This document shows positions 14,531-52,192 of a stretch of DNA of 52,192 bases, piece by piece. The position numbers were made by a program, and so were the translations under genes. Numbering within the stretch: position 1 is the first letter of the stretch; every line of letters begins with the position of its first letter. A model generated the notes under the pieces. The model worked only from the letters and a program-made list of their open reading frames with translations. It was not told the origin of the DNA and did not search any database. The stretch is from the IMG/VR virus record IMGVR_UViG_3300034166_000764, positions 1 through 52,192 of that record, one strand, 5' to 3'. This DNA comes from a virus. Taxonomy: Duplodnaviria > Caudoviricetes.

Positions 14531-14536
14531 ACTATT

Positions 14537-16724: not shown

Positions 16725-16800
16725 TATATTATATATTAGCTATATTATATATTAGTTATATTATATATTAGTTATATTATATATTAGTTATATTATATAT
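16725..16800. repeat. Tandem repeat of 16-mer TATATTATATATTAGY (4 full copies plus a partial one)
   Basis: Read directly at 16725, 16741, 16757, 16773, 16789. Confidence 0.9.
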
Positions 16801-17153: not shown

Positions 17154-17184
17154 AGTAACAGAATTGTAACTCTTGAAATACTAT
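17154..17184 (+). promoter_or_regulatory. Putative phage late promoter 1
   Basis: AGTAAC-N14-TGAAATACTAT. Confidence 0.65.
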
Positions 17185-19966: not shown

Positions 19967-19984
19967 TGTTATACTATATATAAT
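19967..19984 (+). promoter_or_regulatory. Late promoter -10 box variant before portal
   Basis: TGTTATACTATATATAAT then GTG; GTAAC lies adjacent rather than 14 nt upstream. Confidence 0.55.
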
Positions 19985-22224: not shown

Positions 22225-22591
22225 AAATAAGGAAACAAGAAGAAAAATAGAGGAAGCTCAACCACAGGTAAGTATGGCAGCTATCAAATCAGTACCATTT
22301 ACACCAGTAGGAAACAATATAGTTATTAAAAGAGTAACACAAATAGTCCTAGCTAGTGGAATCATCTTACCTAATGCAACTAGCAGTAGTCAGGTTTATC
22401 AGAACTACTATGTGCATGAGATATCAGATGAACTAAAAGAATGGGCTGATAAAATTGGTTTAAAACCAGAGATGGAAATAGACTTCTTTTCTCATGTTCA
22501 GTCTGTAGATTTTGCAGGGCATGAGACAGAAACTGTAGCAACTAGATATTTTTATGCAGAACCGCATAATATTTTAGGAATTAAAAAATAA
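22211..22591 (+). CDS. GroES-like co-chaperonin
   Basis: FTPVGNNIVIKR...ASGIILP mobile-loop motif and NILGI C-terminus. Confidence 0.65.
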   Translation: MQGPRNKETRRKIEEAQPQVSMAAIKSVPFTPVGNNIVIKRVTQIVLASGIILPNATSSSQVYQNYYVHEISDELKEWADKIGLKPEMEIDFFSHVQSVDFAGHETETVATRYFYAEPHNILGIKK

Positions 22592-22602
22592 TTTCAATTT
22601 TA

Positions 22603-22633
22603 AGTAACAAAATGTAGCAAAGTGAAACACTAT
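22603..22633 (+). promoter_or_regulatory. Putative phage late promoter 2
   Basis: AGTAAC-N14-TGAAACACTAT. Confidence 0.65.
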
Positions 22634-22649
22634 AAAAGGAAGAACGAAC

Positions 22650-23381: not shown

Positions 23382-23394
23382 CAAGGAGAAATAA

Positions 23395-24789
23395 ATGGCA
23401 GTAACAGAAACCACAGGTTTAGGTCAGCTTAATTTTAAGGGTGATGTAAGACACTCTAATATTATCATACCTAGCTTGGAAAATTCAATAAAAAAAGAAA
23501 ACTCTCCACTAGTATTAGTTAGGCAACTAGCTATTAATGGTGGTTCATACGCAAACAAACTAGCAAAGGATGAAAATTACGATGCTAGACCTTCAGTAAA
23601 ACTACCTGGTATCACTACTAAAGATCCAATCGTAAGTTGGACAGAGTTTGCATTACGCAGACCTCTATCTTTCGTAACTACTTCAGGTATCAACAACTCA
23701 ACTGACACTACTTTCACAATGGCAGATGCTAGTGTGTTAAGAAAAGAGCAAATCCTGTTCTTCCCAGTAGGAAAAGAGTGGATGAAAGTAACAGACATCA
23801 ACACTGGTACAAACACTGTAACAGTAGCTAGAAATCTAGGTGTAACCCAAAACACACCAAGAACTTTAGTTCCAGGTGGTGTAACAGCTAAATCTAAACA
23901 AACACACGCTTCTGGAGCTACTTTCCTTCCTTTAGCTACAGGTGTTGTGCATGGTAGTGTTTTTGGTGATACTCGTAAATATCAAGGTATTGAAGAGAGA
24001 GTAACAGCTACTCAAAACATCAGAAGCAATATGTCTATCAACAATGTTAGATATATTCAACAACAAAAAGACAGATCAAAACATACTCAGTGGCAATCTA
24101 GACAAGAGCAAGAAGTGTACTACATGGCTGAAGAGCTTGAAGCTACATTATTGTTTGGTGCAACTCACTATGATTCATTAGCTAGAGTAGGTGCTACAAC
24201 TGGTGCTTTATCAACTGGTACTGAAGATGCAGCTTTCACTTTAAGTGATGGTTTATTCAATGCTATTGAGACTTATGCTTCAGGTAACGTAATCACAGCT
24301 ACTTCTTTAGGTGGCCCAGTGTTAAGTTACGATGTAATCTCTGAATACATCAGAACTATTGATGCAGCTATTGGTACAAGTGAAAACACACTTCACATGT
24401 GTGGTTATAACACTTTCAAATCAATAGGTAGAATTGATAGCACTCTTAACAACATCAAATACGACCTTAAGTTTGACAAAGGTATGGAAGAGCAACGTAG
24501 AGGAACTAAAATCAGAACTATCGATACTCAGTTCGGTTCAGCTACATTCTACATTCACCCAATGTTCGACACAGCAGGTACAACTTATGCTAACAGAATC
24601 CTAACGATTCAGAAAGATAGGTTGAACATAGCAGCTCTAGAAGGTATGGAGTTCAAATGGTCTAAGGATTCAGGAGATCACGATTACAACGGTTACTCTG
24701 GTATTAAAAAATACTGTGAGGCTAACTTAGGTCTTCTACTTGCTTATGCTGATGAGCATTTCATTCTAGACGGTATCACACAACTGTAA
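23395..24789 (+). CDS. Major capsid protein
   Basis: 464 aa, strong AAGGAG RBS, ELEATLLFG, DGLF, IDTQFGSATFYIHPMF typical of HK97-fold capsid proteins. Confidence 0.8.
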   Translation: MAVTETTGLGQLNFKGDVRHSNIIIPSLENSIKKENSPLVLVRQLAINGGSYANKLAKDENYDARPSVKLPGITTKDPIVSWTEFALRRPLSFVTTSGINNSTDTTFTMADASVLRKEQILFFPVGKEWMKVTDINTGTNTVTVARNLGVTQNTPRTLVPGGVTAKSKQTHASGATFLPLATGVVHGSVFGDTRKYQGIEERVTATQNIRSNMSINNVRYIQQQKDRSKHTQWQSRQEQEVYYMAEELEATLLFGATHYDSLARVGATTGALSTGTEDAAFTLSDGLFNAIETYASGNVITATSLGGPVLSYDVISEYIRTIDAAIGTSENTLHMCGYNTFKSIGRIDSTLNNIKYDLKFDKGMEEQRRGTKIRTIDTQFGSATFYIHPMFDTAGTTYANRILTIQKDRLNIAALEGMEFKWSKDSGDHDYNGYSGIKKYCEANLGLLLAYADEHFILDGITQL

Positions 24790-24857
24790 TTTAGTAAAGA
24801 TTAAAGGGGGCTGACTGCGGAGCGGGAAGCCTCCTCCAATTAAAGGGGATAATTAAA

Positions 24858-25454
24858 ATGGCAAAACTAACAAAATTTAAAGTAACTACACCGTTTCCAT
24901 TAGTGGCAGCTTGTGTAGTAGGATTATTTGAGTACCAAAGAGAGTACGAGAATATATGGAAAAGAACTAAAGAGATTGATTTTAAAGTAGACTGTAAGAA
25001 AACTACTTTATCTAATGAACTATTAAGAACTGTAGCTAACAAACCGTGGAATATTCACGAGTATGCTTTTGATTTAACTAAGATAAGCAGAAATGACGCT
25101 AAGAATCCAAACCCAGTAACACTATTTGATGTATTAGATTGGATGGTAACTAACTATGACGGTTACTTTAAATCTGGTGAAATTAGATTCGTACTTGACT
25201 TAGATGAGAATGGCAAGCCTACAGATAAAGAGTTAATTAAAGAATTAAAGATCCTACAAGATGATGAGCGTATCTCTTCTAGTAACTTCATTAGTTCAGA
25301 AATATTAATCAAGATCAAGAGTGCTGCACCTATCAGCTTAAGCATAGGTAACATTGATGATTCTCAAGTGGATTCACTGCAAGACATCAAAGATCAAATT
25401 CAAACTAACGTAGGCAATAAGAAAGACAAACTAGCAGTATCTATCGATGGCTAA
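24858..25454 (+). CDS. Hypothetical protein (head module)
   Basis: 198-aa ORF after capsid. Confidence 0.65.
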   Translation: MAKLTKFKVTTPFPLVAACVVGLFEYQREYENIWKRTKEIDFKVDCKKTTLSNELLRTVANKPWNIHEYAFDLTKISRNDAKNPNPVTLFDVLDWMVTNYDGYFKSGEIRFVLDLDENGKPTDKELIKELKILQDDERISSSNFISSEILIKIKSAAPISLSIGNIDDSQVDSLQDIKDQIQTNVGNKKDKLAVSIDG

Positions 25455-26151
25455 TATAAGAGAAAATGATTTCAAGAATAAAGTAGCTTTAGCTTTAAGA
25501 CTAAGGGGTGAGGAAGACTCATCCCTAGTTGAATTAATCATAGAGTTAGCTGTTAAAGACATTTTTAGAGAACTTGGCAGTGATATAGGTACTAGAACTG
25601 TCTATAACCTATCTATAACTAATGAAGATAATAGCGGATACACATTCTCTAGGATTTATTTACCTGAAGATGCTTTATTCCTAAGATCACTTTTTATCAA
25701 TGATGAAGAGCTAATCTGTATAGACCAGAGAGAAGGATTAAAACAAAAGCTTAATATAACATCTACTGCTGGTAAGTTTGTAGGAACTATTCACACTTCC
25801 GAAACAGGTAGATTATATGTAGAACTAACAACTACTTATACTGTAGATGAAGCAGAGCCACCAGTTATATCATGTATTTACAGAGTAAACTATAAAGATA
25901 TTACTTACATACCAGAAGCTTATTTTGATAACTTGCTATATGCTTGTGTATATCACTACAGATGTTTATATGAGTATTCAGACCTAGACTCTTTCAAGAT
26001 ATCTAAAGCTAACTACGATAAAAGACTAAATGATTTAAGAAGTTTAACTAATAATGCTACAGGTGCAGATAAGAATAAATTTCCTTATGAAGTGCTGTGG
26101 CAACAAAACACAGAGTGGTTATACGCTGGTAACAGAGGCGAACACTACTAA
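25447..26151 (+). CDS. Probable head-tail adaptor / tail tubular protein A
   Basis: Size, position and YLPED...IPEAYFDNLLYAC pattern. Confidence 0.55.
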   Translation: MANIRENDFKNKVALALRLRGEEDSSLVELIIELAVKDIFRELGSDIGTRTVYNLSITNEDNSGYTFSRIYLPEDALFLRSLFINDEELICIDQREGLKQKLNITSTAGKFVGTIHTSETGRLYVELTTTYTVDEAEPPVISCIYRVNYKDITYIPEAYFDNLLYACVYHYRCLYEYSDLDSFKISKANYDKRLNDLRSLTNNATGADKNKFPYEVLWQQNTEWLYAGNRGEHY

Positions 26152-26163
26152 AAGGAATGAACC

Positions 26164-26628
26164 ATGAAATTAAGCGAGCAAGGGGAAACACTTTTACACA
26201 CAAGGGAGATCTCCAGATCACCAAACCTAACAGCTTACAAAGACACTGTAGGAGTGTGGACGATAGCGTATGGAAACACATTCTACGCAAACGGTACTCC
26301 TGTCAAGGCAGGGGATAAGATAACTAAAGCTGAAGCCGATAAGCTGTTTAAAGATATTTTATCACAGTTTGAAGGTAAAGTCAAGAAACTAATAGACGTT
26401 ACTAAATTAAATCAGAATCAATATGATGCACTTATCAGTTTAGTATATAACATTGGTACAGGTGCTTTTGGTACTTCTACGCTAAGAAAGTTAATTAATG
26501 ATGGCAAGCTTGTAGAAGCTTCTATAGAGTTTTTAAGATGGAGATTTCCTAATGAGATATTTTCTAGAAGACTAGCGGAAGCTAGACAGTTCGCAGGAGT
26601 AGGTTTTACAGCTAGGTATGGTGCATAA
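26164..26628 (+). CDS. Endolysin, GH24 lysozyme
   Basis: E...AYKDTVGVWTIAYGNT, NQNQYDALISLVYNIG, RRLAE. Confidence 0.9.
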   Translation: MKLSEQGETLLHTREISRSPNLTAYKDTVGVWTIAYGNTFYANGTPVKAGDKITKAEADKLFKDILSQFEGKVKKLIDVTKLNQNQYDALISLVYNIGTGAFGTSTLRKLINDGKLVEASIEFLRWRFPNEIFSRRLAEARQFAGVGFTARYGA

Positions 26629-27038
26629 TGAAAGTTGAGATGATTGGTTTTGATATGAACACTGACTTAGATGTCACCTTTGCCGATAAGCAAATGTTTT
26701 TATTACTAACTAAATCAATCATGGTTAGAGTTACTGACACTAAACAACCTTCTCTACACTCATTTAGCTTTAGAATACCTAAAGGTACAGCATCAGACGG
26801 TGCTAGCAGACCTTTATGGTCAGCGTGGTTAATAGGTGAGAAAACTAAACAACATTACATAAGAGCTGCATTAGTACATGATTTCCTGTGTAGAGAAAAG
26901 ACTTTGCCTCAAAGATTAACTCACGGTATATTCAAAGAACTGCTTAAACAAGATGGTGTAAACCTAGTAACTAGAAATCTAATGTACGCAGCAGTAGTAG
27001 CTTACAACAAAGTAGGGAACTTGTCATGGAAGTGGTAA
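26628..27038 (+). CDS. DUF1353-like protein
   Basis: IPKGTASDGASRP...AALVHDFLC...FKELL...MYAAV. Confidence 0.75.
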   Translation: MKVEMIGFDMNTDLDVTFADKQMFLLLTKSIMVRVTDTKQPSLHSFSFRIPKGTASDGASRPLWSAWLIGEKTKQHYIRAALVHDFLCREKTLPQRLTHGIFKELLKQDGVNLVTRNLMYAAVVAYNKVGNLSWKW

Positions 27039-27064
27039 CAGCAGACACTAAAGTGTTATACTAT
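27034..27064 (+). promoter_or_regulatory. Putative phage late promoter 3
   Basis: GGTAAC-N14-TGTTATACTAT. Confidence 0.65.
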
Positions 27065-27074
27065 ATACATTAAG

Positions 27075-27230
27075 ATGTCTTCTTCAGGTGTAGAACTTAA
27101 ACTAGATTTAATGATAGAGCAAAAAGCTGTAACAGGTGGCATCCCATCGGACAGTTTTTACATTCTTCAAGAAGACAATTTTAAAATTCTTCAAGAAGAT
27201 AGTTTTGGGATATTAACAGAAAATGCCTGA
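27075..27230 (+). CDS. Small virion-associated peptide with ILQED repeats (51 aa)
   Basis: MSSSGVELK...YILQEDNFKILQEDSFGILTENA; below the ORF-track cutoff; follows a late promoter. Confidence 0.6.
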   Translation: MSSSGVELKLDLMIEQKAVTGGIPSDSFYILQEDNFKILQEDSFGILTENA

Positions 27231-27420
27231 TTCAAAAATATCTGGATTAACAGAGGGAACAGTTGTAGATCCAGCTAATGACTGGTTTGTTTATGTAGAC
27301 ACATCAGACACTACTCAAGATTTACTGACGGGGAGTACCAAAAAGTTACGTCCTAGTAATATACCAGCAAGCAGTAAAGCAATAGAAGAAATGAAAAGGA
27401 TAAGTTTCATCAGATCGTGA
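27223..27420 (+). CDS. Tail-fibre N-terminal-like small protein
   Basis: MPDSKISGLT...VDTSDTT...GSTKK. Confidence 0.55.
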   Translation: MPDSKISGLTEGTVVDPANDWFVYVDTSDTTQDLLTGSTKKLRPSNIPASSKAIEEMKRISFIRS

Positions 27421-28259
27421 TTATTCTTAACGATGCTACGAATTTAACGATAGAGCTTGGTACGACTGTAACCACTAACCAACTACCTTTTTATTGCTCA
27501 TATAGGGATTGTGCGGTAGGAGAGCTAACACCCTCCTTCACTTCAGGAGACACAAATAATACTAGCGTAATAAACCTAGCACCAGCAGCAGCTTCGGGTA
27601 AGACTAGAATTATTGATTTCTTTAATGTTTTTAATTTAGATACAACTGCGAAGACAGTCATAATTAAAGTAGGAACTAGAAGATTGTTTTCGGTTGTACT
27701 TTCTTCCAGCGAAACTTTGCAGTACACTGATTCACAGGGATTTCAAGTATTGACCACGGCTGGCAGCGTGAAGCAATCTATCAATCAAGGGTCAAATGCT
27801 GCGAATTCGGGATTTGAAATATCAGTTCTGAGTTCAGATGTAACAAACAATAACGCTACAGCTAATACGATGCAAGATGTTACGGGATTGAATTTCCCTG
27901 TTTTGAGTGGAAAGCTTTATGAATTTGAATTTAACATCCAGTATACGGCAGCGGCGACTACCACTGGCTCTAGATGGGGTGTTAGTGCTTCGGCTGGTGC
28001 AGCGACAAACTTGTCTTTAACAAGCGAATATTCTTTAACAGCTACAACAACAACGAGAAATGCTTTAATTCAGGCTTTTGATTCACCAGCAGCGAGTAAC
28101 GCAACATCAGCAACGACAGGTAACAATTGGGCGAATATTAAAGGTGTAATAAGAGCAACAGCGGATGCTACTTTAACAGCAAGATTCGCTTCGGAGGTAG
28201 CTTCGAGTGCTATAGTGGCGAAAGTTGGTTCCACAGTAAAATGGAGGCAAATTGATTAA
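27417..28259 (+). CDS. Putative fibre/structural beta protein
   Basis: T/S/A-rich; MQDVTGLNFPV...YEFEF, LTARFASEV. Confidence 0.55.
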   Translation: MIILNDATNLTIELGTTVTTNQLPFYCSYRDCAVGELTPSFTSGDTNNTSVINLAPAAASGKTRIIDFFNVFNLDTTAKTVIIKVGTRRLFSVVLSSSETLQYTDSQGFQVLTTAGSVKQSINQGSNAANSGFEISVLSSDVTNNNATANTMQDVTGLNFPVLSGKLYEFEFNIQYTAAATTTGSRWGVSASAGAATNLSLTSEYSLTATTTTRNALIQAFDSPAASNATSATTGNNWANIKGVIRATADATLTARFASEVASSAIVAKVGSTVKWRQID

Positions 28260-28479
28260 TTATTTTTCTTTAGCTGAAAATAACACGCAACTAGAGTTAA
28301 TTACAACTTTTTTTATACCTTTAGCGAATGAACCTTTAGAAGTTCAATCAGAAGACCTTGCATTGTGGACTTTACATCTAGCTAATGTTGAAAACGCAGC
28401 AGATGGAAGATCGTTTACTTTAGATGAAGAAGAGAAAAATCATATTTCGGCTTTTTTAAGGATACACAATTTAATATAA
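28252..28479 (+). CDS. Hypothetical protein
   Basis: 75-aa ORF coupled to the upstream gene. Confidence 0.55.
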   Translation: MINYFSLAENNTQLELITTFFIPLANEPLEVQSEDLALWTLHLANVENAADGRSFTLDEEEKNHISAFLRIHNLI

Positions 28480-28491
28480 GGATACATAATT

Positions 28492-29340
28492 ATGATAGGC
28501 GGATCAGGTAGAGTAGAAATAACAAATAAATTAGTCCAAATAGGCGAGCTGTTTAGTGAAGAATTTAAAGAGCCTTTAAAAGAAAGGGTTTTAGAAGTTT
28601 TTAACCAAGAAATCGAAAAGCTATTAGCTAAAAAAGTAGATAAGCTTAAAGGTCAAAAAGGCGATATTGGAGATCCAGGACAGGATGGTAAAGATGGTGC
28701 TAATGGACTTGATGGTGCTAATGGTAAAGACGGATTAAATGGAGCTGACGGCAAGGATGGAGCTAACGGAAAAGATGGTCTAAATGGTAAAGACGGACTT
28801 GATGGGGCTGATGGTAAAGATGGTGTAGATGGAAAAGATGGTCTAAATGGTACGAATGGTTTAGATGGTAAAGACGGAAAGAACGCAGAGTTTGATTATG
28901 TTTTTGTTAAAAAAGAATTAGCTAACTTGTTTGATCTTTGGAAAAACACTCTAGGAGATTTGACTGGTAAGCAAGGAGAGCAAGGAGAGCAAGGTACACC
29001 AGGTAAGAACGGTTCAGAGTACCCTACTTACGAGAAGCAGTTACTTTCAGATGACATGGTTTCAGTAGTACATCATCAATTACCTATGACTAACGCTGTA
29101 ATGATAGTTTCTGTTGTAGGTATCTCTAATCTTAGTAATTTTATTCGCTTCGAGGAAGAAATAATATTTCAAAATGTAGCTGGTCAAGGTAAATTATTAA
29201 GTAAAGGTTATTTCGTAAATGGTTCTCCAAAGAACAAACCTAACTTAACCTACTCAATCGATATAGTTGATGGTTTCCTTGATTTTTCAATGAAAGGTAA
29301 AACAGACGAAATCTTCGATATTACTGTAGTATTAAAATAA
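28492..29340 (+). CDS. Collagen-like (Gly-X-Y) fibre protein
   Basis: Long GKD/GAN/GLD triplet run plus a second short GXY run. Confidence 0.85.
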   Translation: MIGGSGRVEITNKLVQIGELFSEEFKEPLKERVLEVFNQEIEKLLAKKVDKLKGQKGDIGDPGQDGKDGANGLDGANGKDGLNGADGKDGANGKDGLNGKDGLDGADGKDGVDGKDGLNGTNGLDGKDGKNAEFDYVFVKKELANLFDLWKNTLGDLTGKQGEQGEQGTPGKNGSEYPTYEKQLLSDDMVSVVHHQLPMTNAVMIVSVVGISNLSNFIRFEEEIIFQNVAGQGKLLSKGYFVNGSPKNKPNLTYSIDIVDGFLDFSMKGKTDEIFDITVVLK

Positions 29341-29418
29341 CTAACCAATTAGTAACGTTCACTGTCAAAGTGTTATACTATATATAGTATGGACTTTAAT
29401 ACTATGATCTCTCAAGCT
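29332..29418 (+). repeat. 87-bp direct repeat, copy 1 (late promoter plus first 10 codons MDFNTMISQA)
   Basis: Matches 30479-30565 with 4 mismatches. Confidence 0.95.
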
Positions 29419-29577
29419 TCGAGTGAAGGACAATCACATATATCTGCAAAAAGTGGGAATAGCATTACTTATGTAAGCGACAAAAAACCTTTGAAAAAAA
29501 AATATAACAGTTGATGAAAATTTATTAAACAACTCACCTTTTAAGATTATAAGTTCTTTATTCGAGATATTTAAACT

Positions 29578-30066
29578 ATGACAATATTACCTTTTATCGT
29601 TGGACTATTGATATGCTTATGTTTTTTGCTTTCTGGTGAAATTAGTGTAAATAATTTGGATACATTGATAAAAGATCACTATATAACGGTTTTCACGACT
29701 ATACTTGCCATAAATACAGCGTCAGTAGCTAATCTATTAGTACATTTAAAAGATATAGAAATAAGGGAACATCAAGGAAAAGAAGTATACAAAAAGACTC
29801 GTAAAGAAATGTACGATAATTTGAAGTTCTGTGTAGTAGGGTTAGGTATTTATTTTTTGCTTTTAGCTACATATCCACAAACAAAGATGAAAGTGTTTTA
29901 TTCTTTATTTTCTAGCCCCCTGAGCTTAGAAATAGTTGGTGCATTTCTTTGGTTTGTAGTGGCAAGAGCTTTATGTTTAGCATTATTTATGTATTATCTA
30001 TACGCTACTTATGAAATAGCTGTTAAATTTACAGAGGCAATAAATGGACAAAAAACTAACCCTTAA
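29578..30066 (+). CDS. Multi-pass membrane protein (accessory cassette)
   Basis: About four hydrophobic segments; lies between the direct repeats. Confidence 0.7.
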   Translation: MTILPFIVGLLICLCFLLSGEISVNNLDTLIKDHYITVFTTILAINTASVANLLVHLKDIEIREHQGKEVYKKTRKEMYDNLKFCVVGLGIYFLLLATYPQTKMKVFYSLFSSPLSLEIVGAFLWFVVARALCLALFMYYLYATYEIAVKFTEAINGQKTNP

Positions 30067-30232
30067 ACAAGCCCAAGAGCAAAACAAGCTAGAAGAATTT
30101 ATCCAGCAACAAGAAGATTCAAGCACTGGTGATGAAGAGCTTTTTGATAATACGCTCAAATCTATGCTTGAAAATAAAAACGTAAAAGGAAAAGAAGTTA
30201 AAGAAAATACATCTAAATTAGAGAATATTTGA
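30044..30232 (+). CDS. Hypothetical protein (accessory cassette)
   Basis: 62-aa ORF overlapping the membrane gene. Confidence 0.55.
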   Translation: MDKKLTLKQAQEQNKLEEFIQQQEDSSTGDEELFDNTLKSMLENKNVKGKEVKENTSKLENI

Positions 30233-30247
30233 TTTTTCTTTTAATAT

Positions 30248-30284
30248 ATAAGTGAGCTGGTACGGGAAATACCAACTCACTTAT
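30248..30284. terminator. Hairpin between convergent cassette genes
   Basis: ATAAGTGAGCTGGTA...TACCAACTCACTTAT inverted repeat. Confidence 0.65.
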
Positions 30285-30298
30285 GAATGTTCAAGCAG

Positions 30299-30430
30299 TT
30301 ACTTCTTCTTTCCTTGTGCTTGAGCAACTGCACTAGCAGCTATAGTTTTGCTCGTTCTTGTAGATTTAGGGCTTCTAAGAACTTTTGCAGCAACTTTAGC
30401 TACCTTTCGGCTTGTTTGCTTTTTGCTCAT
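30299..30430 (-). CDS. Small highly basic protein (43 aa)
   Basis: MSKKQTSRKVAKVAAKVLRSPKSTRTSKTIAASAVAQAQGKKK; TTAACA-17-GATACT promoter 6 nt upstream. Confidence 0.65.
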   Translation of the reverse strand: MSKKQTSRKVAKVAAKVLRSPKSTRTSKTIAASAVAQAQGKKK

Positions 30431-30478
30431 ACTTAAAGTATCGCAAAATTATTAACGTATGTTAAGGGGATAAGCGTG

Positions 30479-30565
30479 TTAAAATAACCAACCAATTAGT
30501 AACATTCACTACCAAAGTGTTATACTATATATAGTATGGACTTTAATACTATGATCTCTCAAGCT
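30479..30565 (+). repeat. 87-bp direct repeat, copy 2 (late promoter plus start of intact gene)
   Basis: Contains AGTAAC-N14-TGTTATACTAT at 30498-30528. Confidence 0.95.
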
Positions 30566-30844
30566 ACAGGTGGTTTTGGTGGTCAGACACCTGCAATAAA
30601 CTATAAAAACACTGCTGCTGGTTTTGAGTTTGATAAGAAAGGTAGGATTAAAAGAGATCCATCAACTGGTCTTTTAATAGATCCAAGAGAAAGAAGAACT
30701 TTAAAACAATATAATAGAAACCCATTTGGACAGACAGTAGGTAACACTTTAAACTGGAATATACCAAATGTTCTAACAGGAGCTAACATACCTTCAGGTG
30801 GTTATGCTGGTATTCTATCAGGATTACAAGGATTAGGTCAATAG
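30536..30844 (+). CDS. Hypothetical virion/ejection-module protein
   Basis: 102-aa G/N-rich ORF after a late promoter. Confidence 0.6.
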   Translation: MDFNTMISQATGGFGGQTPAINYKNTAAGFEFDKKGRIKRDPSTGLLIDPRERRTLKQYNRNPFGQTVGNTLNWNIPNVLTGANIPSGGYAGILSGLQGLGQ

Positions 30845-31261
30845 ATGAGTAAAAAGAACGATAATTTAGAATTTGCTAAGATACTAGCTCAGTTAATCCC
30901 TTCTGTGATGAAGAATCAACCTACACTAGAACCCGTTTTAAGTATGCCAAAAAAAGCAATAAAAAATATGCTATACAGAACATCACCAGATTATAGAAAA
31001 GATGCAAAAGAGAATACCGCTCTTATGACATATCAGAGAGGTCTTGAGTATGAGCCTTTAGCTAGGAACTGGGATAGAGAAAACGAGGTTGCAAAAGAAT
31101 ATACTTATGGGGGATCTCCTAATGATGCTGATAATACACTGTATCCTAATGCTTATGCAGCTTACAGAGAATTTGTAGAACCCCGCAATGGGTCTCAACA
31201 TGGTTTAAGTGCCGCAGAAATGTTAGCTAGAGCTAAGTTCTCAAATAAGAGAGGTCAATAG
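30845..31261 (+). CDS. Hypothetical protein
   Basis: 138-aa ORF abutting both neighbours. Confidence 0.6.
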   Translation: MSKKNDNLEFAKILAQLIPSVMKNQPTLEPVLSMPKKAIKNMLYRTSPDYRKDAKENTALMTYQRGLEYEPLARNWDRENEVAKEYTYGGSPNDADNTLYPNAYAAYREFVEPRNGSQHGLSAAEMLARAKFSNKRGQ

Positions 31262-39055: not shown

Positions 39056-39856
39056 TTAATCATCTACAAAACATCCACATCCGCCGAAATCATTTTTTTC
39101 TATTTCATTTAATTCTAAGTGCTTCTCCCTAAAAGCCTTTAAAGATAGATATTCTATTTTTTTATTAATTGTTTTTTTTAAAAAAGGTTTATCTAATTTA
39201 GGATTTTTTTTAATTAAATCTTCTTGCTCCTGTTCGTGCCTTAAATAAACTTCTGGTAATTTTTCGTAAAGGTTTTTGAAGTGTGCAAGTCCAGCCCTGA
39301 CACAAAAACCACCGCAATTATTATGAGAAAAACCTAAGTCATATAATCTAGGTTTTTCGATTCCATAACTGCTTAATATTTTTTCTTTATCTTCTGGGAA
39401 AATAAAAGGTTTATCGCAAAGTGGTGCTATAACTTCATAGGGATTATTTATTTTGGCTCTTTCTAGTCTTTCCGATTCCTCCCAGCCGATACCCAAGCAA
39501 ACAACAAAATCACCATTAGGGTAATTTTCTTTAATCCATTTATTGAAAGTTTCTCTTTTAAGGATTTTAGAACATGGTGCTATTCGAGAATTACCTTGAA
39601 GCTTAACATCCTCGAAAACTTGCCACGGGGTTCTTCCATCGGCTATTTCGATTAATTCTAAATTCAAAGCTTGAGCTGATTCCCTTAAAAATCTATATAG
39701 GTCGGGGTCTTCGATCAAAGTGTCCGTAAAGACTAATTTGATTTCCGTTTCTGGATATTTGATTTTGCACAGGTGAGCAGCATAAAAGCTACCTAATCCA
39801 CCCGAATAACTAACTATGATTGTTTTTGGCATTTTAACTATACTCCTGGTAAACAC
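39056..39856 (-). CDS. PAPS-reductase-like (adenine nucleotide alpha-hydrolase) protein with Cys clusters
   Basis: SYSGGLGS PP-loop, FTDTLIED, CSKILK, HNNCGGFCV, GGCGCF; start probably MPKT at 39832. Confidence 0.8.
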   Translation of the reverse strand: MFTRSIVKMPKTIIVSYSGGLGSFYAAHLCKIKYPETEIKLVFTDTLIEDPDLYRFLRESAQALNLELIEIADGRTPWQVFEDVKLQGNSRIAPCSKILKRETFNKWIKENYPNGDFVVCLGIGWEESERLERAKINNPYEVIAPLCDKPFIFPEDKEKILSSYGIEKPRLYDLGFSHNNCGGFCVRAGLAHFKNLYEKLPEVYLRHEQEQEDLIKKNPKLDKPFLKKTINKKIEYLSLKAFREKHLELNEIEKNDFGGCGCFVDD

Positions 39857-40286
39857 AAGTAAGTTTTTTCTTCTGATCTTCTTTAGTTAGTAGAGCTACT
39901 TCTGCCACTCTTCTTTTCTTAAGTCCTGACTCAGAAGCTAGACCTTTATTAATCTTATTCTTCATAACCCACGCAGCAGCAGGTTTATTACCGCTAGCAG
40001 CTAACTTAACTGCTTTAGTACAGCCGTATCTACCGGCATTATAACAATAGCTAACTAAAGCATCATGCTCATTCTTAGTAGCATTTTTAAATATTGATAA
40101 TACGTATTTAGAATCTAACTCCAAGTGTTTAACCATTCTAGACTTAGCTTCTGTCTTGCCTATACATTCCCATTTGCTATTAGCTTTAGTACCGTAGCCG
40201 TTAGAGTATTGAGATAAGTCATGGTAAGCACAACTAGAGAAGCCTTCCAACCCAATTATAAAAGTTAATAAAGACTCTGTAATCAT
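39834..40286 (-). CDS. Second GH24 lysozyme-like protein
   Basis: LEGFSSCAYHD...SNGYGT, DALVSYCYNAG, GLKKRRVAE. Confidence 0.85.
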   Translation of the reverse strand: MITESLLTFIIGLEGFSSCAYHDLSQYSNGYGTKANSKWECIGKTEAKSRMVKHLELDSKYVLSIFKNATKNEHDALVSYCYNAGRYGCTKAVKLAASGNKPAAAWVMKNKINKGLASESGLKKRRVAEVALLTKEDQKKKLTCVYQEYS

Positions 40287-40612
40287 CTACCTACCATCCT
40301 GATACCAGTACCAGCAGCTCTAGGCTCATGTACATAAGTAGCACCTATTCTAACGTGAGAATCTTCGCTAGTAACAGCAGCCTGTCTTGACAACTCTTCA
40401 GCTTCCTCATAATACTTAACAGCTTTTATTGATGTAGCTAAAAGCTTGTTTGCTGTTAGATAGTTAATCTTACTTCTTCTATACTCAGCCTCAGCATACC
40501 TTTGGTTCTCTCTTCTAACCTCTAGCTCATCTCTTGCTATCTTTAATTGTGGTGTATCCGCTAATGCAGCTTGACCAACTAAAACTATTCCTAATAATAT
40601 TAATTTTTTCAT
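40283..40612 (-). CDS. Exported coiled-coil protein
   Basis: Signal peptide MKKLILLGIVLVGQAALA. Confidence 0.65.
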   Translation of the reverse strand: MKKLILLGIVLVGQAALADTPQLKIARDELEVRRENQRYAEAEYRRSKINYLTANKLLATSIKAVKYYEEAEELSRQAAVTSEDSHVRIGATYVHEPRAAGTGIRMVGR

Positions 40613-40678: not shown

Positions 40679-40709
40679 AGTAACAAGACAATCCCCACTG
40701 TAATACTAT
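40679..40709 (+). promoter_or_regulatory. Putative phage late promoter before the tail-fibre module
   Basis: AGTAAC-N14-TGTAATACTAT. Confidence 0.65.
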
Positions 40710-40718
40710 ATATAATAG

Positions 40719-41357
40719 ATGTCCTTCTCATTCATTAAACCTCTGCCGTTGAACAACAACCAGAGAAACGCAAAAGAAATAGCAGATGCTATAACAGAGC
40801 TGCGTGATGGTTTAACTACTTTTAATCCAGATGATCTAATCCTACCAAGTAAGGTAGGTGGTGCTAACAAAGCATTAAGTTTAAATGCAGGTGAAACAGC
40901 TTTAGTATATAACACTGTAGCTAGAACAGACGCTTCTAGTTTTATTAGTCAAGATATTTTAGTACATGATGGTAGTTTATTTACTAGATTAGGTAAAGGT
41001 GCAGAAGGTCAATTACTTGGCGTAACTTCTGGCAATTTAGCTTATAGGACTGTAGCTACTGATTTAACTGATTGGGAAATTAAAACATCTAACTTTAATG
41101 CTACTGATAAAGGTCAATATTCCATTAATACAGGTTTAAATGTTCAACTACCTCCACCGACTGCAACGATTAATATAGTAGTCAAACCAGCAATAGGACA
41201 GGATTTTACAGTAACTCCATCAACTTTAGTTAGGGCTGGTTCTGAAAAGATAGCTAATGACGCTGCTAGTTACACAATGGATATAAATGCAGAGTACAAG
41301 ATTACAAGTAATGGTACAGATTATGATGTATCCGTTACACCAATAGGGAGAGTTTAA
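40719..41357 (+). CDS. Tail fibre protein
   Basis: RLGKGAEGQLL and WEIKTSNFNA...VQLPP fibre-type repeats. Confidence 0.65.
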   Translation: MSFSFIKPLPLNNNQRNAKEIADAITELRDGLTTFNPDDLILPSKVGGANKALSLNAGETALVYNTVARTDASSFISQDILVHDGSLFTRLGKGAEGQLLGVTSGNLAYRTVATDLTDWEIKTSNFNATDKGQYSINTGLNVQLPPPTATINIVVKPAIGQDFTVTPSTLVRAGSEKIANDAASYTMDINAEYKITSNGTDYDVSVTPIGRV

Positions 41358-47021: not shown

Positions 47022-47232
47022 CTACATTCTTCAAATCATCACCTATTCTATTTAAAGTATCAATGTCTTTAGAATCTACTATAGCATTAACAGCTAGCTC
47101 AGCTATCTTACACAACTTATCTTTATCCCAATGAGGATTAAAAGCTATAGCTAGTGTAAATACACCATCATGTAATCCATAAGTAGCTTCATCTAAAGCT
47201 ATGTAGTATCTATTAGTTAATTTATCGTTCAT
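47002..47232 (-). CDS. Hypothetical protein
   Basis: 76-aa coupled ORF. Confidence 0.6.
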   Translation of the reverse strand: MNDKLTNRYYIALDEATYGLHDGVFTLAIAFNPHWDKDKLCKIAELAVNAIVDSKDIDTLNRIGDDLKNVGDSSET

Positions 47233-48401
47233 AAATATACTGGGAAATACTTATAAAAGTTAGTTTCCCTTCTCCCTTTACTATCTATATAATAGCTTAT
47301 AGCTTGTGAAGCTTTGCTATTAAACCCTAACGTATCAGCGTATCCATCTTGTCCACAGAGAGAACCATTAGTAACTATCTTTCCATCCATATAAGAATTA
47401 CTCTCATGGTAATGACCCATTCTAAAGAAGTCTATATTCTTTTTTAACTGAACTGATCTATTAGCAATGTGAGTAAGGATAGATTTAGGATTGTTACTCT
47501 TAATCATATCTCCATGTTCATATACTATAGTATTACCATAAAGCTCTACTACACTATAATTGACTTCTGAAATATCCCATACTACATTATTGTACCCAGA
47601 TTTATTACTTAGTAACATTAAGATATTATAAATAATCCAGGTAACATTATTCTTAGCAGCATGACTAAATGATTTATGTTCTTGAGTCCTATCATGGTTT
47701 CCAGTAACCCCAACAACCTTTACATTAATCCCCTTAGAGGCAGCATACGCAAAGACAGGACTCAAGATATCTTCAAACAGTGATATGGTAGAATAAGTTA
47801 TTTGTTCACTGTTTCCAAACTCACAACCTACAGCAGACTCTAAGCCGTGCATAGTGTATGATTCTATAATATCACCCATAAGAGCTATGATTACATTCTC
47901 TACATTAAAGATTTTAGATTCATTCTCTATCTCTTTTATAAGAACATCAGCAAGCTCTACTAGCCTAGCTCTAGCTACCTCAAGATTGAATGTAGCAGTC
48001 TTCTTACCAAAGTGCAGATCGCTAAGAAGCAACTCAATAGACATACTATGTTTGTTATTAACTTTCTTTTCATTATGTTTGACAGTCCTCGGCTTTATCT
48101 TATCTACTATGTCATTAACAGCTATCAGTATATCATCTAATAATAGATGTTTCTCTGCTATGTTGTTAAGGTTCTTAGCTACTTCTCTATTCCTAGCAGT
48201 TAGTCTAACATTAGTTTTAATTACATTGATCTGGTTCTTATCAGATACATAGTAACCATATCTAGAGTAAGCCACAGATAAAGCACTACAGCTTTTATCG
48301 TCACTGAATTTTTTATTATATTTATCTTTAATTACATCCCAATCTAAACCTTGTAGTTTAAGATCGTGTATAAATAGTATATGTTCTTCTTGATAACTCA
48401 T
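47229..48401 (-). CDS. Calcineurin-like metallophosphoesterase with N-terminal HTH-like region
   Basis: SDLHFG, GDIIE, GNHDR, EHGD, GHYH. Confidence 0.9.
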   Translation of the reverse strand: MSYQEEHILFIHDLKLQGLDWDVIKDKYNKKFSDDKSCSALSVAYSRYGYYVSDKNQINVIKTNVRLTARNREVAKNLNNIAEKHLLLDDILIAVNDIVDKIKPRTVKHNEKKVNNKHSMSIELLLSDLHFGKKTATFNLEVARARLVELADVLIKEIENESKIFNVENVIIALMGDIIESYTMHGLESAVGCEFGNSEQITYSTISLFEDILSPVFAYAASKGINVKVVGVTGNHDRTQEHKSFSHAAKNNVTWIIYNILMLLSNKSGYNNVVWDISEVNYSVVELYGNTIVYEHGDMIKSNNPKSILTHIANRSVQLKKNIDFFRMGHYHESNSYMDGKIVTNGSLCGQDGYADTLGFNSKASQAISYYIDSKGRRETNFYKYFPVYL

Positions 48402-49561
48402 ACATACTCCCTTAGAAGGTCTTTGAAATCAGGATTCTTTAAAGCTCTCAATGCTCTAGATACTACCCCTTTACCAAACTCTTCAATCAAACTTCTCTTA
48501 CTTGTTTTAGTATAACCAAACAATCCAAATAGTCTACAGATAACTAACTCATTAATTTCACCTAAAGTAGATAAAGCTCTTTTAAGATCAATAAGATAGT
48601 CGTTATCCTCTGTAACGCTTGTTTTATCATGCTTTACGATAGATACTGAGTTAGTATATTTAGTAATATATTTTAAGTCTTTCTTAGTTAAGTTAGTCAT
48701 CTTCTCATCATTGAGAGAAGTACCATCAAAATTACTTCTAGTAGCTTTCATAATGTTAGTAACTCTCTTAACTGGAACTATAGTGTTGTAAGTAACTACC
48801 TCATTGACTAAAGCTTGAGCATATACGTTTCTAAAAGCATAATGTATATTATCATAATTTGAATAGTGTTTAACTAACTGTAGCACTGCTGCATTAAAAC
48901 AAGACTCTGCTACATTAGGATCTTGTGTGTATCTTGTAGCAAAGTTAGACTTATAACTCTTCAACTGTTCACAAAGTCTAACTATCCATCCAGAATGTTC
49001 ATCACCAGAGCTGGTAGCTGCTTTAGTAACCAACTCTTTCAATGACATCTTTCTGGACTTTCCCACACTAGCAGTGTTACCACTAACTAGAATACCCTTT
49101 AACTTCTTTAACATCTCATACTTACTACCTTCTAAGTTAAACTTAGCTATACACTCCTTAAGAGAAGGGTACTTAAAGTTACCACTAGCATTAGGTATAG
49201 CTACATGATCTCTAGCTAGTTCTAGTAGATCAACAAGAACTATAGCTGGAGTAGGTCTATTAACTTTAAAGTATAAACTAGCTAACATAGTATCTTGGAA
49301 GTCTTTGTTAATAGTATAGGTGCTAAACCCTTCTGAACCATCATTAAGAATGTCGGTTATTTCTTTAATAGTGTAGCCTTTAGCAAGCTTCTCATCAGTA
49401 ATACCGTTGATAGCAGTGATATGAGCTGGTACTGTGTAACCTTCTGCTTGTTTAATGTAGTGTGTATTATCATCAATCACAACCGCTAGCACGTTAGGTG
49501 TGCTAGGGTCTTTATAGTTATGGGTTTTTAACAGCCCATCTGTTTCAAAGTATAGTATCAT
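48398..49561 (-). CDS. Degenerate DnaQ/DEDDh-fold domain fused to a sigma-70-like factor
   Basis: N-terminus: ILYFETDGL, YIK..GYTVPAHITAINGITDEKL, FKYPSLKE; C-terminus: region-2-like ALVNEVVTYNTIVPV and region-4-like LKRALSTLGEINELVICRLFGLFG...RALRALKNP..KDLLREYV. Confidence 0.65.
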   Translation of the reverse strand: MILYFETDGLLKTHNYKDPSTPNVLAVVIDDNTHYIKQAEGYTVPAHITAINGITDEKLAKGYTIKEITDILNDGSEGFSTYTINKDFQDTMLASLYFKVNRPTPAIVLVDLLELARDHVAIPNASGNFKYPSLKECIAKFNLEGSKYEMLKKLKGILVSGNTASVGKSRKMSLKELVTKAATSSGDEHSGWIVRLCEQLKSYKSNFATRYTQDPNVAESCFNAAVLQLVKHYSNYDNIHYAFRNVYAQALVNEVVTYNTIVPVKRVTNIMKATRSNFDGTSLNDEKMTNLTKKDLKYITKYTNSVSIVKHDKTSVTEDNDYLIDLKRALSTLGEINELVICRLFGLFGYTKTSKRSLIEEFGKGVVSRALRALKNPDFKDLLREYV

Positions 49562-49823: not shown

Positions 49824-49859
49824 TTTAATAATTCTCCTATTGTTGTTATACCCGATTTC

Positions 49860-51104
49860 TTAATAATTATAACCTACCACCTCATTAAATACTTGTCCAT
49901 TAATATTAGTAAATGGCATCAGTGTACTCTCATTCATACCACCACCAAACTCATGTCTATTTTTTAAGCATTGTAGATCCACTCTGTTACGTTCCTCAGT
50001 CTTAGTTATAGTAATGATTTGACTAGCAGCATCTTTAGTCTGCCCTGAACCTTTAATGTCATCATAAGACTTAATAGTCTTAGAACTGCTGCCACTATCT
50101 ACAGAGGACTTTCTTAGCTGTGCTAAGCAGATAGCTATAGCACCTTCATCTATACAATACTTCTTTAGACCTAATACAAACTCATCAAACTTAGCTATGT
50201 CTGTATTACCAGTAACCATGTTAAGATGATCTACAAAGATAAACTTATACTTCTTCTTGTAAAGCATTGGTAAGAAGTCATCTATGTTAGGGTGACAGCC
50301 AAAGTCAATATCCATATCATACACAGAGTCTTGTAAGTCATTAATGATAGCTATATCATCCCTGTTGGGGCTTTCCACTGACTTCATATTAAATGTTAAT
50401 CTACCTTTCCTTGTAGCCAACTGTACTAAAAGCTTTCTCATTAATACATTAGAATCCATCTCTAAACTGTTATAGAAGCAAGGGTAGTGTCTACTAAAGT
50501 CTTCTAGTAGATTAAGAGCAAAGGTAGTCTTACCACAACCAGTACCAGCAGTCAATACCAGTATATCATTCTCTCTCAGCCCACCACCAAAGCATCTATT
50601 TAAAGAATCATATCTAGTAGGGTAGATGATAGATTTACCAGTCTCTAAGTAGTCTACAGCCTGCTCTAACACCTTATCAAATGCTTGCTTAACACTCTTA
50701 GGTTCATCTATTCTAGGTAGTCTAGCTATGTTCTTATTCAGTACAGCAAGGTGTTTATCAAACTTCTCTGGTGAGTCTAGAACTGCTTGGTTAAACACTT
50801 CTAAGAATCCAGTAGTCTTTAGTTTCTTATAATTATCTAAGCTACCTTTAAGATATATTACTTTCTGCTCTTGAGGTAAGTTTTTAAACAACTGATATTC
50901 TTCTGATGTGGTTAGTTCAGCTACATAAGTAAGCTCACTATCAGTAAGTGATTGCATACCTTGACCATCTTGTATACTCTTAAGTATGTTCACCGACATA
51001 GTGTCATCAAAGAAGTCTAAAGGAAGAGTAGATACCTTCTTAGATATATACTGATCCATAGTACCATCTAATGGTGTTATAGCTAACAGTTCTTTATTAT
51101 ACAT
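49860..51104 (-). CDS. DnaB-like replicative helicase
   Basis: Walker A AGTGCGKT, SLEM, FVDHL, LAQLRK, DIKGSG, KNRH. Confidence 0.92.
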   Translation of the reverse strand: MYNKELLAITPLDGTMDQYISKKVSTLPLDFFDDTMSVNILKSIQDGQGMQSLTDSELTYVAELTTSEEYQLFKNLPQEQKVIYLKGSLDNYKKLKTTGFLEVFNQAVLDSPEKFDKHLAVLNKNIARLPRIDEPKSVKQAFDKVLEQAVDYLETGKSIIYPTRYDSLNRCFGGGLRENDILVLTAGTGCGKTTFALNLLEDFSRHYPCFYNSLEMDSNVLMRKLLVQLATRKGRLTFNMKSVESPNRDDIAIINDLQDSVYDMDIDFGCHPNIDDFLPMLYKKKYKFIFVDHLNMVTGNTDIAKFDEFVLGLKKYCIDEGAIAICLAQLRKSSVDSGSSSKTIKSYDDIKGSGQTKDAASQIITITKTEERNRVDLQCLKNRHEFGGGMNESTLMPFTNINGQVFNEVVGYNY

Positions 51105-52074
51105 TGTTTACATCCTTCTCTATCTCTCTAACACTCATAGACCTGATCTGAGCTAGGTCTAAACTCATCTGCTTTCTATGTAACATAAATTTACATGACC
51201 TTATCAATCTAATAATATCTAAATCATTATACCCATGATTAAGCATCCACATAACTACTCCTATCTTAACATAGTTATTATCATTATACAAACACTCACC
51301 AAAATCTTTACCAGAATAATCATAACAATACACTGGAACTCCTACAGCTATTAGTTTCTTTAACAGCTCATATTGTGCCTGTAAACCTGATTTATCATTA
51401 TCAAGAGCTAATATAATATCTCTTCCTAAGTCTTTTAACTGTTTAATCTGCTGCTCACTAGCAACACAACCACCTAAAGCTACACAATCTAAATCTTCTT
51501 GTTTAGCTAAGATAGAATCAATGTAAGACTCTACCACTACTACAGGTGCTTGTCTATTAGTGATGTTGTCTAATCCCATCAGCACCTCTGACTTACCACC
51601 ATCACTACTATACCTATACTCTTTTCTGTAAATGTCTCTAGTCATATGGAACTTATACTTTTTATTTTTAGATATTGGAAATACTATAGCAGATCCAAGT
51701 GCAGCAAGCCTATAGTCATCTATAGAGTCATCAGTAATACCTCTAGAATAGAGGAACTTCTTATGTGCTTCAGTTAATGGTTCAAACTCTGGTGATTCCT
51801 CTAACTCTATTTTATCATACTTTATCTCAAACATATCAGCTATTTCTTTAGCTGCTTGAGTGTAGTTTAAGTCATTTAGTTGAGAATAGTATCTAATAAT
51901 GTCTGACCTTTCACCACAAGCAAAGCAGAAAGCAAAGTCATCATTCACTATCATAGAGGGAATCGTATCATTATGAAACGGACATCGTATCATTTTCTTA
52001 GTTATCCTAATGTTGAGTTTGGATAAAAAATTCTCGAATGTGATCTGGCTTTTTATATCATTAAATAACTTCAT
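51097..52074 (-). CDS. DnaG-like primase (CHC2 zinc finger plus TOPRIM)
   Basis: CPFHNDTIPS...CFAC; VVESYID; ALDNDKSG. Confidence 0.92.
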   Translation of the reverse strand: MKLFNDIKSQITFENFLSKLNIRITKKMIRCPFHNDTIPSMIVNDDFAFCFACGERSDIIRYYSQLNDLNYTQAAKEIADMFEIKYDKIELEESPEFEPLTEAHKKFLYSRGITDDSIDDYRLAALGSAIVFPISKNKKYKFHMTRDIYRKEYRYSSDGGKSEVLMGLDNITNRQAPVVVVESYIDSILAKQEDLDCVALGGCVASEQQIKQLKDLGRDIILALDNDKSGLQAQYELLKKLIAVGVPVYCYDYSGKDFGECLYNDNNYVKIGVVMWMLNHGYNDLDIIRLIRSCKFMLHRKQMSLDLAQIRSMSVREIEKDVNNV

Positions 52075-52192
52075 TCATGTAACCCTCGTCATAAAACTGT
52101 ATGAGCCTTTCCTCAAACTTAGCAAAGTTCTCTGCTATCTCTTCAGGAGTAAACAAATAACTTTTAAACTCATCTTTAGGTAAGGCTACAGT
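52000..52192. repeat. Terminal overlap, copy 2
   Basis: Duplicate of 1-193. Confidence 0.95.

Follow-up and report, generated by a model that had tools for sequence, protein, structure and literature searches.

A divergent sigma-70-like half fused to an apparently inactivated DnaQ-like exonuclease domain in a protein of an uncultivated phage clade

In this work, a gene for an unusual fusion protein (the target) was analysed in a DNA stretch of 52,192 nucleotides, hereafter the window, which makes up the virus record IMGVR_UViG_3300034166_000764 (Duplodnaviria; Caudoviricetes). The gene is a single open frame on the minus strand (48398..49561, stop codon at 48398-48400), which starts with ATG and encodes 387 amino acids (aa). 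The N-terminal part of its product is predicted to have the fold of a DnaQ-like exonuclease but to be catalytically dead, and the C-terminal half is, judging from sequence comparison, probably of sigma-70 ancestry. Within a known family, the fusion of a pseudo-exonuclease and a sigma-like half represents a new domain architecture, so far confined to one uncultivated phage clade. We propose, with a probability of about 0.55, that the target is a phage sigma factor that retargets the host core polymerase to late promoters and carries the DEDDh module in a non-catalytic role. The architecture itself had been put forward in an earlier note made from the sequence without database searches, and several independent tests now agree with it. 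Its claim that such a protein was undescribed also stands within the passages returned by full-text literature searches, in which no fusion of a sigma factor with a DEDDh or DnaQ-like domain was found. In the excerpts available on jumbo phages, minimal and RpoD-like sigmas are described without an exonuclease fusion (PMC7824862).

Residues 1 to about 160 are predicted to form the DnaQ/DEDDh fold, which is RNase H-like. In Pfam, the RNase_T model matched residues 30-145 with an E value of 2.3e-4 and 22.2 bits, slightly under its cut-off of 24 bits, and PHROG 192, annotated as 'DNA polymerase exonuclease subunit', matched the N-terminal half with an E value of 1.2e-6. A four-row profile searched against the PDB found Cas2-DEDDh (E 2.1e-4) and the PolC exonuclease (E 7.4e-3). 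Furthermore, AlphaFold2 (AF2), when run on an 11-row alignment to which distant relatives had been added, modelled residues 1 to about 160 with a predicted local distance difference test (pLDDT) score of about 85-94. Foldseek matched this domain to DnaQ, the PolC exonuclease, the DinG exonuclease domain and the epsilon subunit of DNA polymerase III (Pol III) with E values of 2e-5 to 5e-4 and TMt of 0.6-0.69, the top match being the DnaQ domain 8h2f (E 2.1e-5, TMt 0.68). The DEDDh-like nature of the N-terminal half, as claimed in the earlier note, is borne out by these matches.

The catalytic positions were read from an alignment with three active relatives (P0013, P0014, and P0016), which keep the canonical FDTETTG, HNxxFD, and AHDAxxD motifs. 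Of the five catalytic residues, the target keeps only Glu6. The ExoI Asp is missing, with Y4-F5 in its place, the ExoII Asp has become Q89, and the ExoIII His has become K155. The ExoIII Asp is replaced by N162 in the target but is still Asp in 5 of the 6 relatives of the family alignment, whereas all seven family members have Y/F, Q, and K in place of the ExoI Asp, ExoII Asp, and ExoIII His, respectively. The N-terminal domain is therefore, on the reading of its residues, predicted to be catalytically dead, in line with the missing catalytic residues reported in the earlier note. With the metal-binding and general-base residues lost, it would be a pseudo-enzyme retained for binding and not for catalysis. 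One detail of the earlier note had to be corrected, namely that KYPSLKE, which it had listed in the DEDDh/epsilon pattern, does not represent ExoIII; the motif is common to the active relatives (FRYPKLHE, FKWPTLSE), in which ExoIII comes after it. Similar losses of catalytic residues were observed outside the window in three standalone DnaQ-like proteins of 190-195 aa (P0010, P0011, and P0012), in which the ExoI Asp is replaced by Y/S and the ExoII Asp by Q/H, and which are without ExoIII. Dead versions of the domain thus also occur free-standing. P0010 had no match in phages. The phage matches of P0011 (Vibrio podophages and a Sphingobium phage) were dropped as context, as they are active exonucleases of the canonical kind and have no sigma-like gene beside them.

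For the C-terminal half, a broad sigma profile was built from 80 group-1/2 sigma loci, obtained in one scan of genome contigs, and 12 E. coli and phage sigmas, of which 91 rows were left after a length filter. A homologue search with E. coli FliA was unfit for a diverse profile, the 120 matches listed being near-identical FliA only (at least 81% identity). The C-half scored 16.3 bits against the hidden Markov model (HMM) of the 91 rows (HMMER P 2.7e-7, Z=1) and 11.0 bits against that of the 80 loci (Z=1). None of 3000 residue shuffles reached these scores (maxima 7.2 and 9.0 bits), and the reversed sequence gave -1.0 and -0.3. In a six-frame scan of the window, the target alone scored (14.6 bits, the next 1.0) among 85 open frames of at least 80 aa, so there is no other sigma-like frame in the genome. 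The seven listed of the eight Vibrio-phage control proteins sent had sigma HMM scores of at most 0.2. The highest-posterior part of the HMM match was the region 4-like segment, residues 321-387.

When the C-half was compared with the 91-row alignment by hhalign, a match with a Prob of 82.3% (P 1e-5) was obtained over 115 columns, from region 2.4/3.0 to region 4.2, which corresponds to C-half positions 98-214, i.e., residues 262-378 of the protein. None of 258 column shuffles reached the observed score (maximum 28.3 vs 42.6). The alignment pairs VPVKRVTNIMK with iPvHv..nki of region 2.4/3.0 and ends with LSTLGEINELVICRLFGLFGY...LIEEFG------KGVVSRALRALKNP against L..L..rer.Vi..rfGl......leEvg...gvTreRirQI...AL.kLr, leaving a gap of six residues in the recognition helix, opposite vTreRi. 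The sigma pairings made in the earlier note, VPVKRV with iPvH and LSTLGEINELVICRLFGL...ALRALKNP with region 4, were thereby recovered blind, and the shortened recognition helix noticed there reappears as this gap. The sigma likeness of the region 3-4 part is supported by these profile comparisons, although no curated Pfam model of region 4 matched it.

Residues 191-265 are a plausible candidate for sigma region 2. This part was placed colinearly by every method, with NFATRY opposite sIAkrY and ...AESCFNAAVLQLVKHYSNYD opposite DLiQeG..GL..Av.kFd. The only match to Pfam Sigma70_r2 in the whole record was at 48830-48946 (residues about 206-244; E 0.007, 12.3 bits), and the top NCBIfam match was TIGR02937 sigma70-ECF, where ECF stands for extracytoplasmic function (residues 206-341; E 0.0027, 17.3 bits). 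All listed named clusters in language-model searches with residues 165-387 and 170-268 were sigma-70 with a score of 0.94, matches that serve as leads only because their shared-feature counts are low (123-160 of 256). In the search with residues 170-268 (ESM Atlas), the Sigma70_r2 family set accounted for 25 of 30 matches.

The fusion was found in nine clusters (90% identity) of 360-404 aa, 81-100% identical, in a search of 5.8 billion proteins covering JGI, ENA, and Logan assemblies. Contigs from two more sequencing runs cover the target open reading frame (ORF) without indels and differ by four substitutions. Each of the four falls on a third codon position, with three of them synonymous and one N32K, and the DNA contigs are too alike for an estimate of the ratio of nonsynonymous to synonymous substitution rates (dN/dS). 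Full-length homologues in independent assemblies, together with spanning contigs free of indels, show that the fusion is not an assembly artefact joining two genes, a danger that the earlier note had named itself. Its suggestion to look for the fusion in other phages led to one phage clade and to nowhere outside it. Among 1.84 billion representatives, eight proteins passed an E value of 0.001, seven of them from outside the clade and matching the N-domain only; neither a C-half relative outside this one narrow clade nor a full-length fusion outside it was found there. A tblastn search of 50,697 phage records with the whole protein and with the C-half gave nothing at 1e-3 and only six noise matches at E <= 10 (a transglycosylase and hypothetical proteins). 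Pattern matches in viral contigs (127) and in two scans of metagenome contigs (102 and 27) yielded no confirmed relative.

The two halves of the protein differ in how they vary. In the segment of residues 60-110, where the former ExoII motif is located, 45 of 51 columns are variable among seven homologues, and one homologue (P0008) has an insertion of 18 residues. In residues 111-387, only 24 of 277 columns vary across the same seven (7/54, 7/101, 4/55, and 6/67 in the four consecutive segments), so the C-half is more tightly constrained than part of the N-domain. The flanks of the N-domain (residues 1-59 and 111-164) are conserved as well. Either diversifying selection on an interface or a relaxation of constraint where an active site has decayed could explain the hypervariable patch. 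Between the two domains, residues 161-190 are almost invariant among homologues; the AF2 pLDDT is below 50 from residue 162.

Candidate promoters were found in the same genome. The motif GTAAC-N14-TG, pointed out in the earlier note, is indeed enriched in the window, with 16 occurrences against 5.86 +/- 2.33 expected. Six of these 16 extend to GTAAC(A/G)-N13-TG-NN-A(T/C)ACTAT against 0.00 expected, a count that is descriptive because the composite pattern was refined after the sites had been viewed. All six are on the plus strand, upstream of structural-module or late operons. For TGNNAYACTAT, 8 copies were counted where 2.13 +/- 1.32 were expected. Seven copies are on the plus strand, six of which have GTAAC at a fixed -35-like spacing, and the eighth TGTTATACTAT copy is on the minus strand at 16889-16899, in an ORF-poor region. 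The promoter layout comprises a -35-like GTAACA, a spacer of 16-17 nt, and an extended -10 element, TGnTATACT. ECF-type sigmas typically have an AAC core in the -35 element, and sigma region 3.0 reads TGn.

The beginnings of the genes behind these sites have some features of their own. At five of the seven plus-strand sites (19967-19990, 27054-27085, 29371-29398, 30518-30545, and 40699-40722), an ATG or GTG is located about 7-12 nt past TATACT, so late transcripts may be leaderless or nearly so; the two of these five short-leader sites that are in a duplicated block are identical. The site at 22604 contrasts with them in having an AGGAAG Shine-Dalgarno-like leader. The duplicated block of about 90 nt (29330-29420 and 30477-30567) contains sites 4 and 5 and extends into identical first codons (ATGGACTTTAATACTATGATCTCTCAAGC), so that two adjacent late genes have a common promoter and 5' end.

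Sigma factors encoded by phages are a classic means of timing gene expression. We hypothesize that residues of about 190-387 are a very divergent sigma-70-family factor composed of region 2-like, region 3-like, and region 4-like parts, in the last of which the recognition helix is shortened. The target would take the place of the host sigma on the RNA polymerase core of the host and would steer the polymerase to six or seven phage promoters of the GTAACA, 16-17 nt, TGnTATACT type before the structural and lysis operons. The transcription driven in this way would be late. The N-domain might be a nucleic-acid-binding or protein-docking module, the hypervariable loop region of which would face a variable partner. 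The earlier note had proposed a late-transcription switch in which the dead domain serves as a sensor, a tether, or a built-in anti-sigma, as a one-protein analogue of T4 gp55/gp33/gp45; none of the results bears out these functional proposals.

Several results weigh against this interpretation. All curated sigma models remained under their cut-offs (Sigma70_r2 12.3-13.1 vs 24 bits, TIGR02937 17.3 vs 42.9), and neither Pfam Sigma70_r4 nor Sigma70_r4_2 gave any match at E <= 10. When the C-half alone was searched in Pfam, the unrelated eukaryotic Homeo-prospero model (E 0.019) was ranked above Sigma70_r2 (E 0.086). The hhalign comparison with an 11-row alignment of E. coli FliA, RpoE, and phage sigmas was negative (Prob 0.5% and 0.3%), so detection hinges on a profile rich in group-1/2 sigmas. 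The earlier note had likened the C-half to both region 2 and region 4; the region 4 match is beyond chance, but region 2 alone is non-significant in hhalign (P 0.66). With a 12-row ECF HMM, region 2 scored 6.9 bits, colinearly, but 5 of 3000 shuffles scored as high and another ORF of the window reached 6.1. AF2 left the C-half unfolded at pLDDT below 50; on a 7-row alignment the mean pLDDT was 41.6, which is unusable, and the 11-row alignment rescued the N-domain only. The residues in the gap of the recognition helix are presumably most of those that read the -35 element in sigma-70. Moreover, the -10 part of the late sites is near an ordinary extended -10 and could be used by the host primary sigma unaided, and the enrichment of the composite site suffers from the after-the-fact pattern described above. 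As the -10 is near the general consensus, that these promoters belong to the target is something that we infer. When residues 165-387 were co-folded with E. coli beta-prime 250-320, the score was 0.01 without controls, a result that was counted neither way.

Some of these points could also be explained if the sigma-derived C-half bound RNA polymerase without being a promoter-specificity factor. It might be a decoy or an inhibitor, or it might displace or remodel the host sigma in the manner of an appropriation-type factor. In that case the host sigma would read the late promoters via the extended -10, and another factor would bind GTAAC. A recognition helix about six residues short in the hhalign alignment, a barely recognisable region 2, and a TGnTATACT element near the consensus extended -10 are all compatible with such a role. 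We nevertheless consider it rather unlikely, since the order of regions 2, 3, and 4 is preserved in full-length colinear alignments, no further frame resembling a sigma or an activator was detected, and GTAAC is kept at a fixed -35-like spacing in six of seven sites, as a contact by sigma region 4 would give. It is less probable still that the C-half is a lineage-specific helical domain whose sigma likeness is convergent or due to chance and which has a role in replication or repair like its neighbours. The shuffling controls speak against chance, with 0/3000 and 0/258 reaching the observed scores, as do the target being the only scoring frame of 85 and the agreement of Pfam Sigma70_r2, NCBIfam TIGR02937, and the ESM Atlas on the same family in the same order. 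What keeps this explanation in view is the C-half being without homologues outside the clade among the 1.84 billion representatives, the curated models all under cut-off, the negative hhalign result with the 11-row alignment, the AF2 model without a confident C-half fold, and an operon context of replication and recombination.

The remaining alternative concerns the N-domain, which might still be a nuclease by means of non-canonical residues, so that the protein would be an RNA-polymerase-associated or DNA-end-processing nuclease. Some DnaQ-fold proteins without the DEDDh residues do cleave nucleic acid, and Glu6, the Asp at position 162 in 5 of 6 relatives, and the conserved residues 1-59 and 111-164 could be taken in the same sense. 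The replacement of the ExoI Asp, ExoII Asp, and ExoIII His in 7/7 family members, and the former ExoII region being the most variable part of the protein, make this very improbable. We thus retain a phage sigma factor with a non-catalytic DEDDh module as the preferred reading. The parts of the protein and the other features of the window that are involved in it are listed in Table 1.

Table 1. Positions in the window of the predicted parts of the target, of its operon neighbours, and of the promoter-like sites
Feature	Position	Strand	Evidence or remark
Residues 1-160, predicted DnaQ/DEDDh-fold pseudo-exonuclease	49082..49561	minus	Pfam, PHROG, PDB profile, AF2, Foldseek, alignment
Residues 60-110, hypervariable segment including former ExoII motif	49232..49384	minus	family alignment
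Residues 161-190, linker or possible pre-region-2 helix	48992..49081	minus	AF2, alignment
Residues 191-265, candidate sigma region 2	48767..48991	minus	Pfam, TIGR02937, ECF HMM, Atlas
Residues 266-320, region 2.4/3.0-to-region 3-like linker	48602..48766	minus	inside hhalign match
Residues 321-387, sigma region 4-like (LSTLGEINELVICRLFGL...ALRALKNP), recognition helix about 6 residues shorter	48401..48601	minus	HMM and hhalign
DnaG-type primase	51097-52074	minus	Pfam Zn_ribbon_DnaG, Toprim_2; PHROG 47 and PHROG 19 for the primase and helicase pair
DnaB-type helicase	49860-51104	minus	Pfam DnaB_C; PHROG 47 and PHROG 19 for the primase and helicase pair
Upstream operon genes (primase and helicase)	49860..52074	minus	
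Metallophosphoesterase-type (Mre11-like) exonuclease	47229..48401	minus	PHROG 284 E 7.9e-56, Pfam Metallophos
Late-type promoter-like site 1 (GTAAC-N14-TG-NN-ATACTAT)	17155..17184	+	start of rightward structural module
TGTTATACTAT element before portal gene	19967..19977	+	GTAAC present, spacing differs
Late-type promoter-like site 2	22604..22633	+	upstream of ORF at 22650
Late-type promoter-like site 3	27035..27064	+	
Late-type promoter-like site 4	29352..29381	+	
Late-type promoter-like site 5	30499..30528	+	in duplicated block common with site 4
Late-type promoter-like site 6	40680..40709	+	upstream of ORF at 40719

The leftward operon runs in the order DnaG-type primase, DnaB-type helicase, an 86-aa ORF, the target, and a metallophosphoesterase-type exonuclease, and the primase and helicase genes that the earlier note had placed upstream were confirmed by Pfam and PHROG. 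The ATG of the target is 1 nt past the stop of the 86-aa ORF, with AAGGA 10 nt before the start, and its TGA shares ATGA with the ATG of the downstream gene. From this arrangement, the target gene is predicted to be translationally coupled inside the primase-helicase-nuclease operon and cotranscribed with the replication genes. In the contig of one lake-metagenome run (X10), 779 extra bases are present between the helicase gene and the 86-aa ORF (49853-49869), a strain-level insertion just upstream of the operon segment of the target. Since the family-A DNA polymerase of the phage itself contains a 3'-5' exonuclease domain (PF01612, E 3.4e-13), a separate proofreader is unnecessary. No phage RNA polymerase was found among the 30 ORFs scanned. 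Other genes of the genome encode a ribonucleotide reductase, a RecB/Cas4-like exonuclease, MazG, an S-adenosylmethionine (AdoMet) decarboxylase, and a 3'-phosphoadenosine 5'-phosphosulfate (PAPS) reductase, and the rightward structural module contains terminase, portal, and tail fibre genes.

The ends of the window (1-193 and 52000-52192) form a direct overlap of 193 nt with one mismatch (192/193), so the record amounts in effect to a closed genome of 51,999 bp with terminal redundancy, and the ORF at 62-748 is the same gene as the open-ended frame at 52061-52192. Despite the overlapping ends, the record is classed as linear with an estimated completeness of 63%. Between the divergent leftward and rightward modules there is an ORF-poor, AT-rich stretch of 2.6 kb (14530-17180; GC content 0.28-0.30). 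An array of repeats spaced by about 16 and about 31 nt (TATATTAGTTATATTA-type) is found in it, especially at 16610-16870, together with several direct repeats of 25-39 nt. This stretch is a candidate origin or early-promoter region. A small leftward island (39056-40612) with a PAPS reductase-like gene (PHROG 424, E 1.4e-45) and two small ORFs interrupts the rightward late module, and late-type promoter site 6 (40680) comes after it.

The phage belongs to an uncultivated group and appears to be a recurrent lake phage. The stretch 22000-31000, or part of it, is contained in 20 sequencing-run rows from 17 studies, most of them labelled as metagenomes of freshwater or lake water, from runs of 2016-2025, and no RNA run is listed for it. 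Half or more of the sampled words are present in 14 of the 20 rows, and 4 of those 14 may be the source of the record. No isolated relative was found by tblastn with the terminase. In such an uncultivated group the regulation of a phage is otherwise opaque, and the six near-identical sites offer a clean and testable promoter set for what an extra domain adds to a sigma. To our knowledge, known phage sigmas are free-standing sigma domains. If the proposed fusion of a sigma and a pseudo-exonuclease is true, the sigma-70 family would gain a new domain architecture, and there would be a new example of an enzyme fold reused as a regulatory or binding module.

In comparison with the sigma-70 family, the target has, in colinear order, a candidate region 2, a stretch aligned to region 2.4/3.0 (VPVKRV vs iPvH), and a part aligned to region 4.1/4.2 (L..L.e..elVi.RlFGL....l.E.G....ALraLk.P), and its C-half of about 200 aa is like that of group 3/4 sigmas. 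On the other hand, it is under every curated cut-off, the core-binding motif of region 2.2 is unrecognisable, the recognition helix is about six residues shorter, and a 160-residue DEDDh-fold domain is present where sigma-70 has region 1.1. The phage sigmas compared were those of the Bacillus phages Bcp1, Stills, Bp8p-C, and z1a, Brevibacillus phage Jenst, and Microcystis phage MaAM05; further phage sigmas are SPO1 gp28/gp34 and T4 gp55. Like them, the target is encoded by a phage gene in an early or middle region and is presumed to redirect the host RNA polymerase, but no similarity to the compared sigmas was detectable (hhalign Prob < 1%), and none of them is annotated with an exonuclease-type N-domain in the compared records. 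In Bacillus phage Eldridge (KU253712.1, 132650-134170), a coding sequence of 1521 nt (about 506 aa) annotated as 'sporulation sigma factor SigF' has its sigma match in the first half and may thus represent a further phage sigma that carries a large additional domain, there at the C-terminus.

With DnaQ or Pol III epsilon, the PolC exonuclease, Cas2-DEDDh, and DinG, the N-domain of the target has the predicted fold and a sequence-profile match in common. As in Cas2-DEDDh and DinG, the DEDDh-fold domain is fused to a non-nuclease partner. It differs from DEDDh exonucleases in that the catalytic D, D, and H, and in this copy a further D, are replaced, and the fusion partner is sigma-like. In T4 late transcription, gp55 is the sigma-like protein, gp33 the co-activator, and gp45 the sliding clamp. 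No homology to gp55, gp33, or gp45 was found in the Pfam or PHROG scans, and no clamp gene or clamp-binding motif was identified; tethering to the replisome was itself not tested. The likeness would be a functional analogy, in which the activity of a divergent, minimal sigma could be tied to replication. By this analogy, the dead epsilon-like domain might dock on primer 3' ends, the replicative polymerase, or the sliding clamp, so that sigma activity would reach replicating phage DNA only. We regard such docking as a speculative and improbable extension of the proposed sigma function. In that event the target might be, with similarly little likelihood, a one-protein and independently evolved counterpart of the clamp-coupled late transcription of T4, with the segment 60-110 tracking a variable host partner. 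It would mean, if the N-domain does link transcription to replication, that T4-type logic arose more than once.

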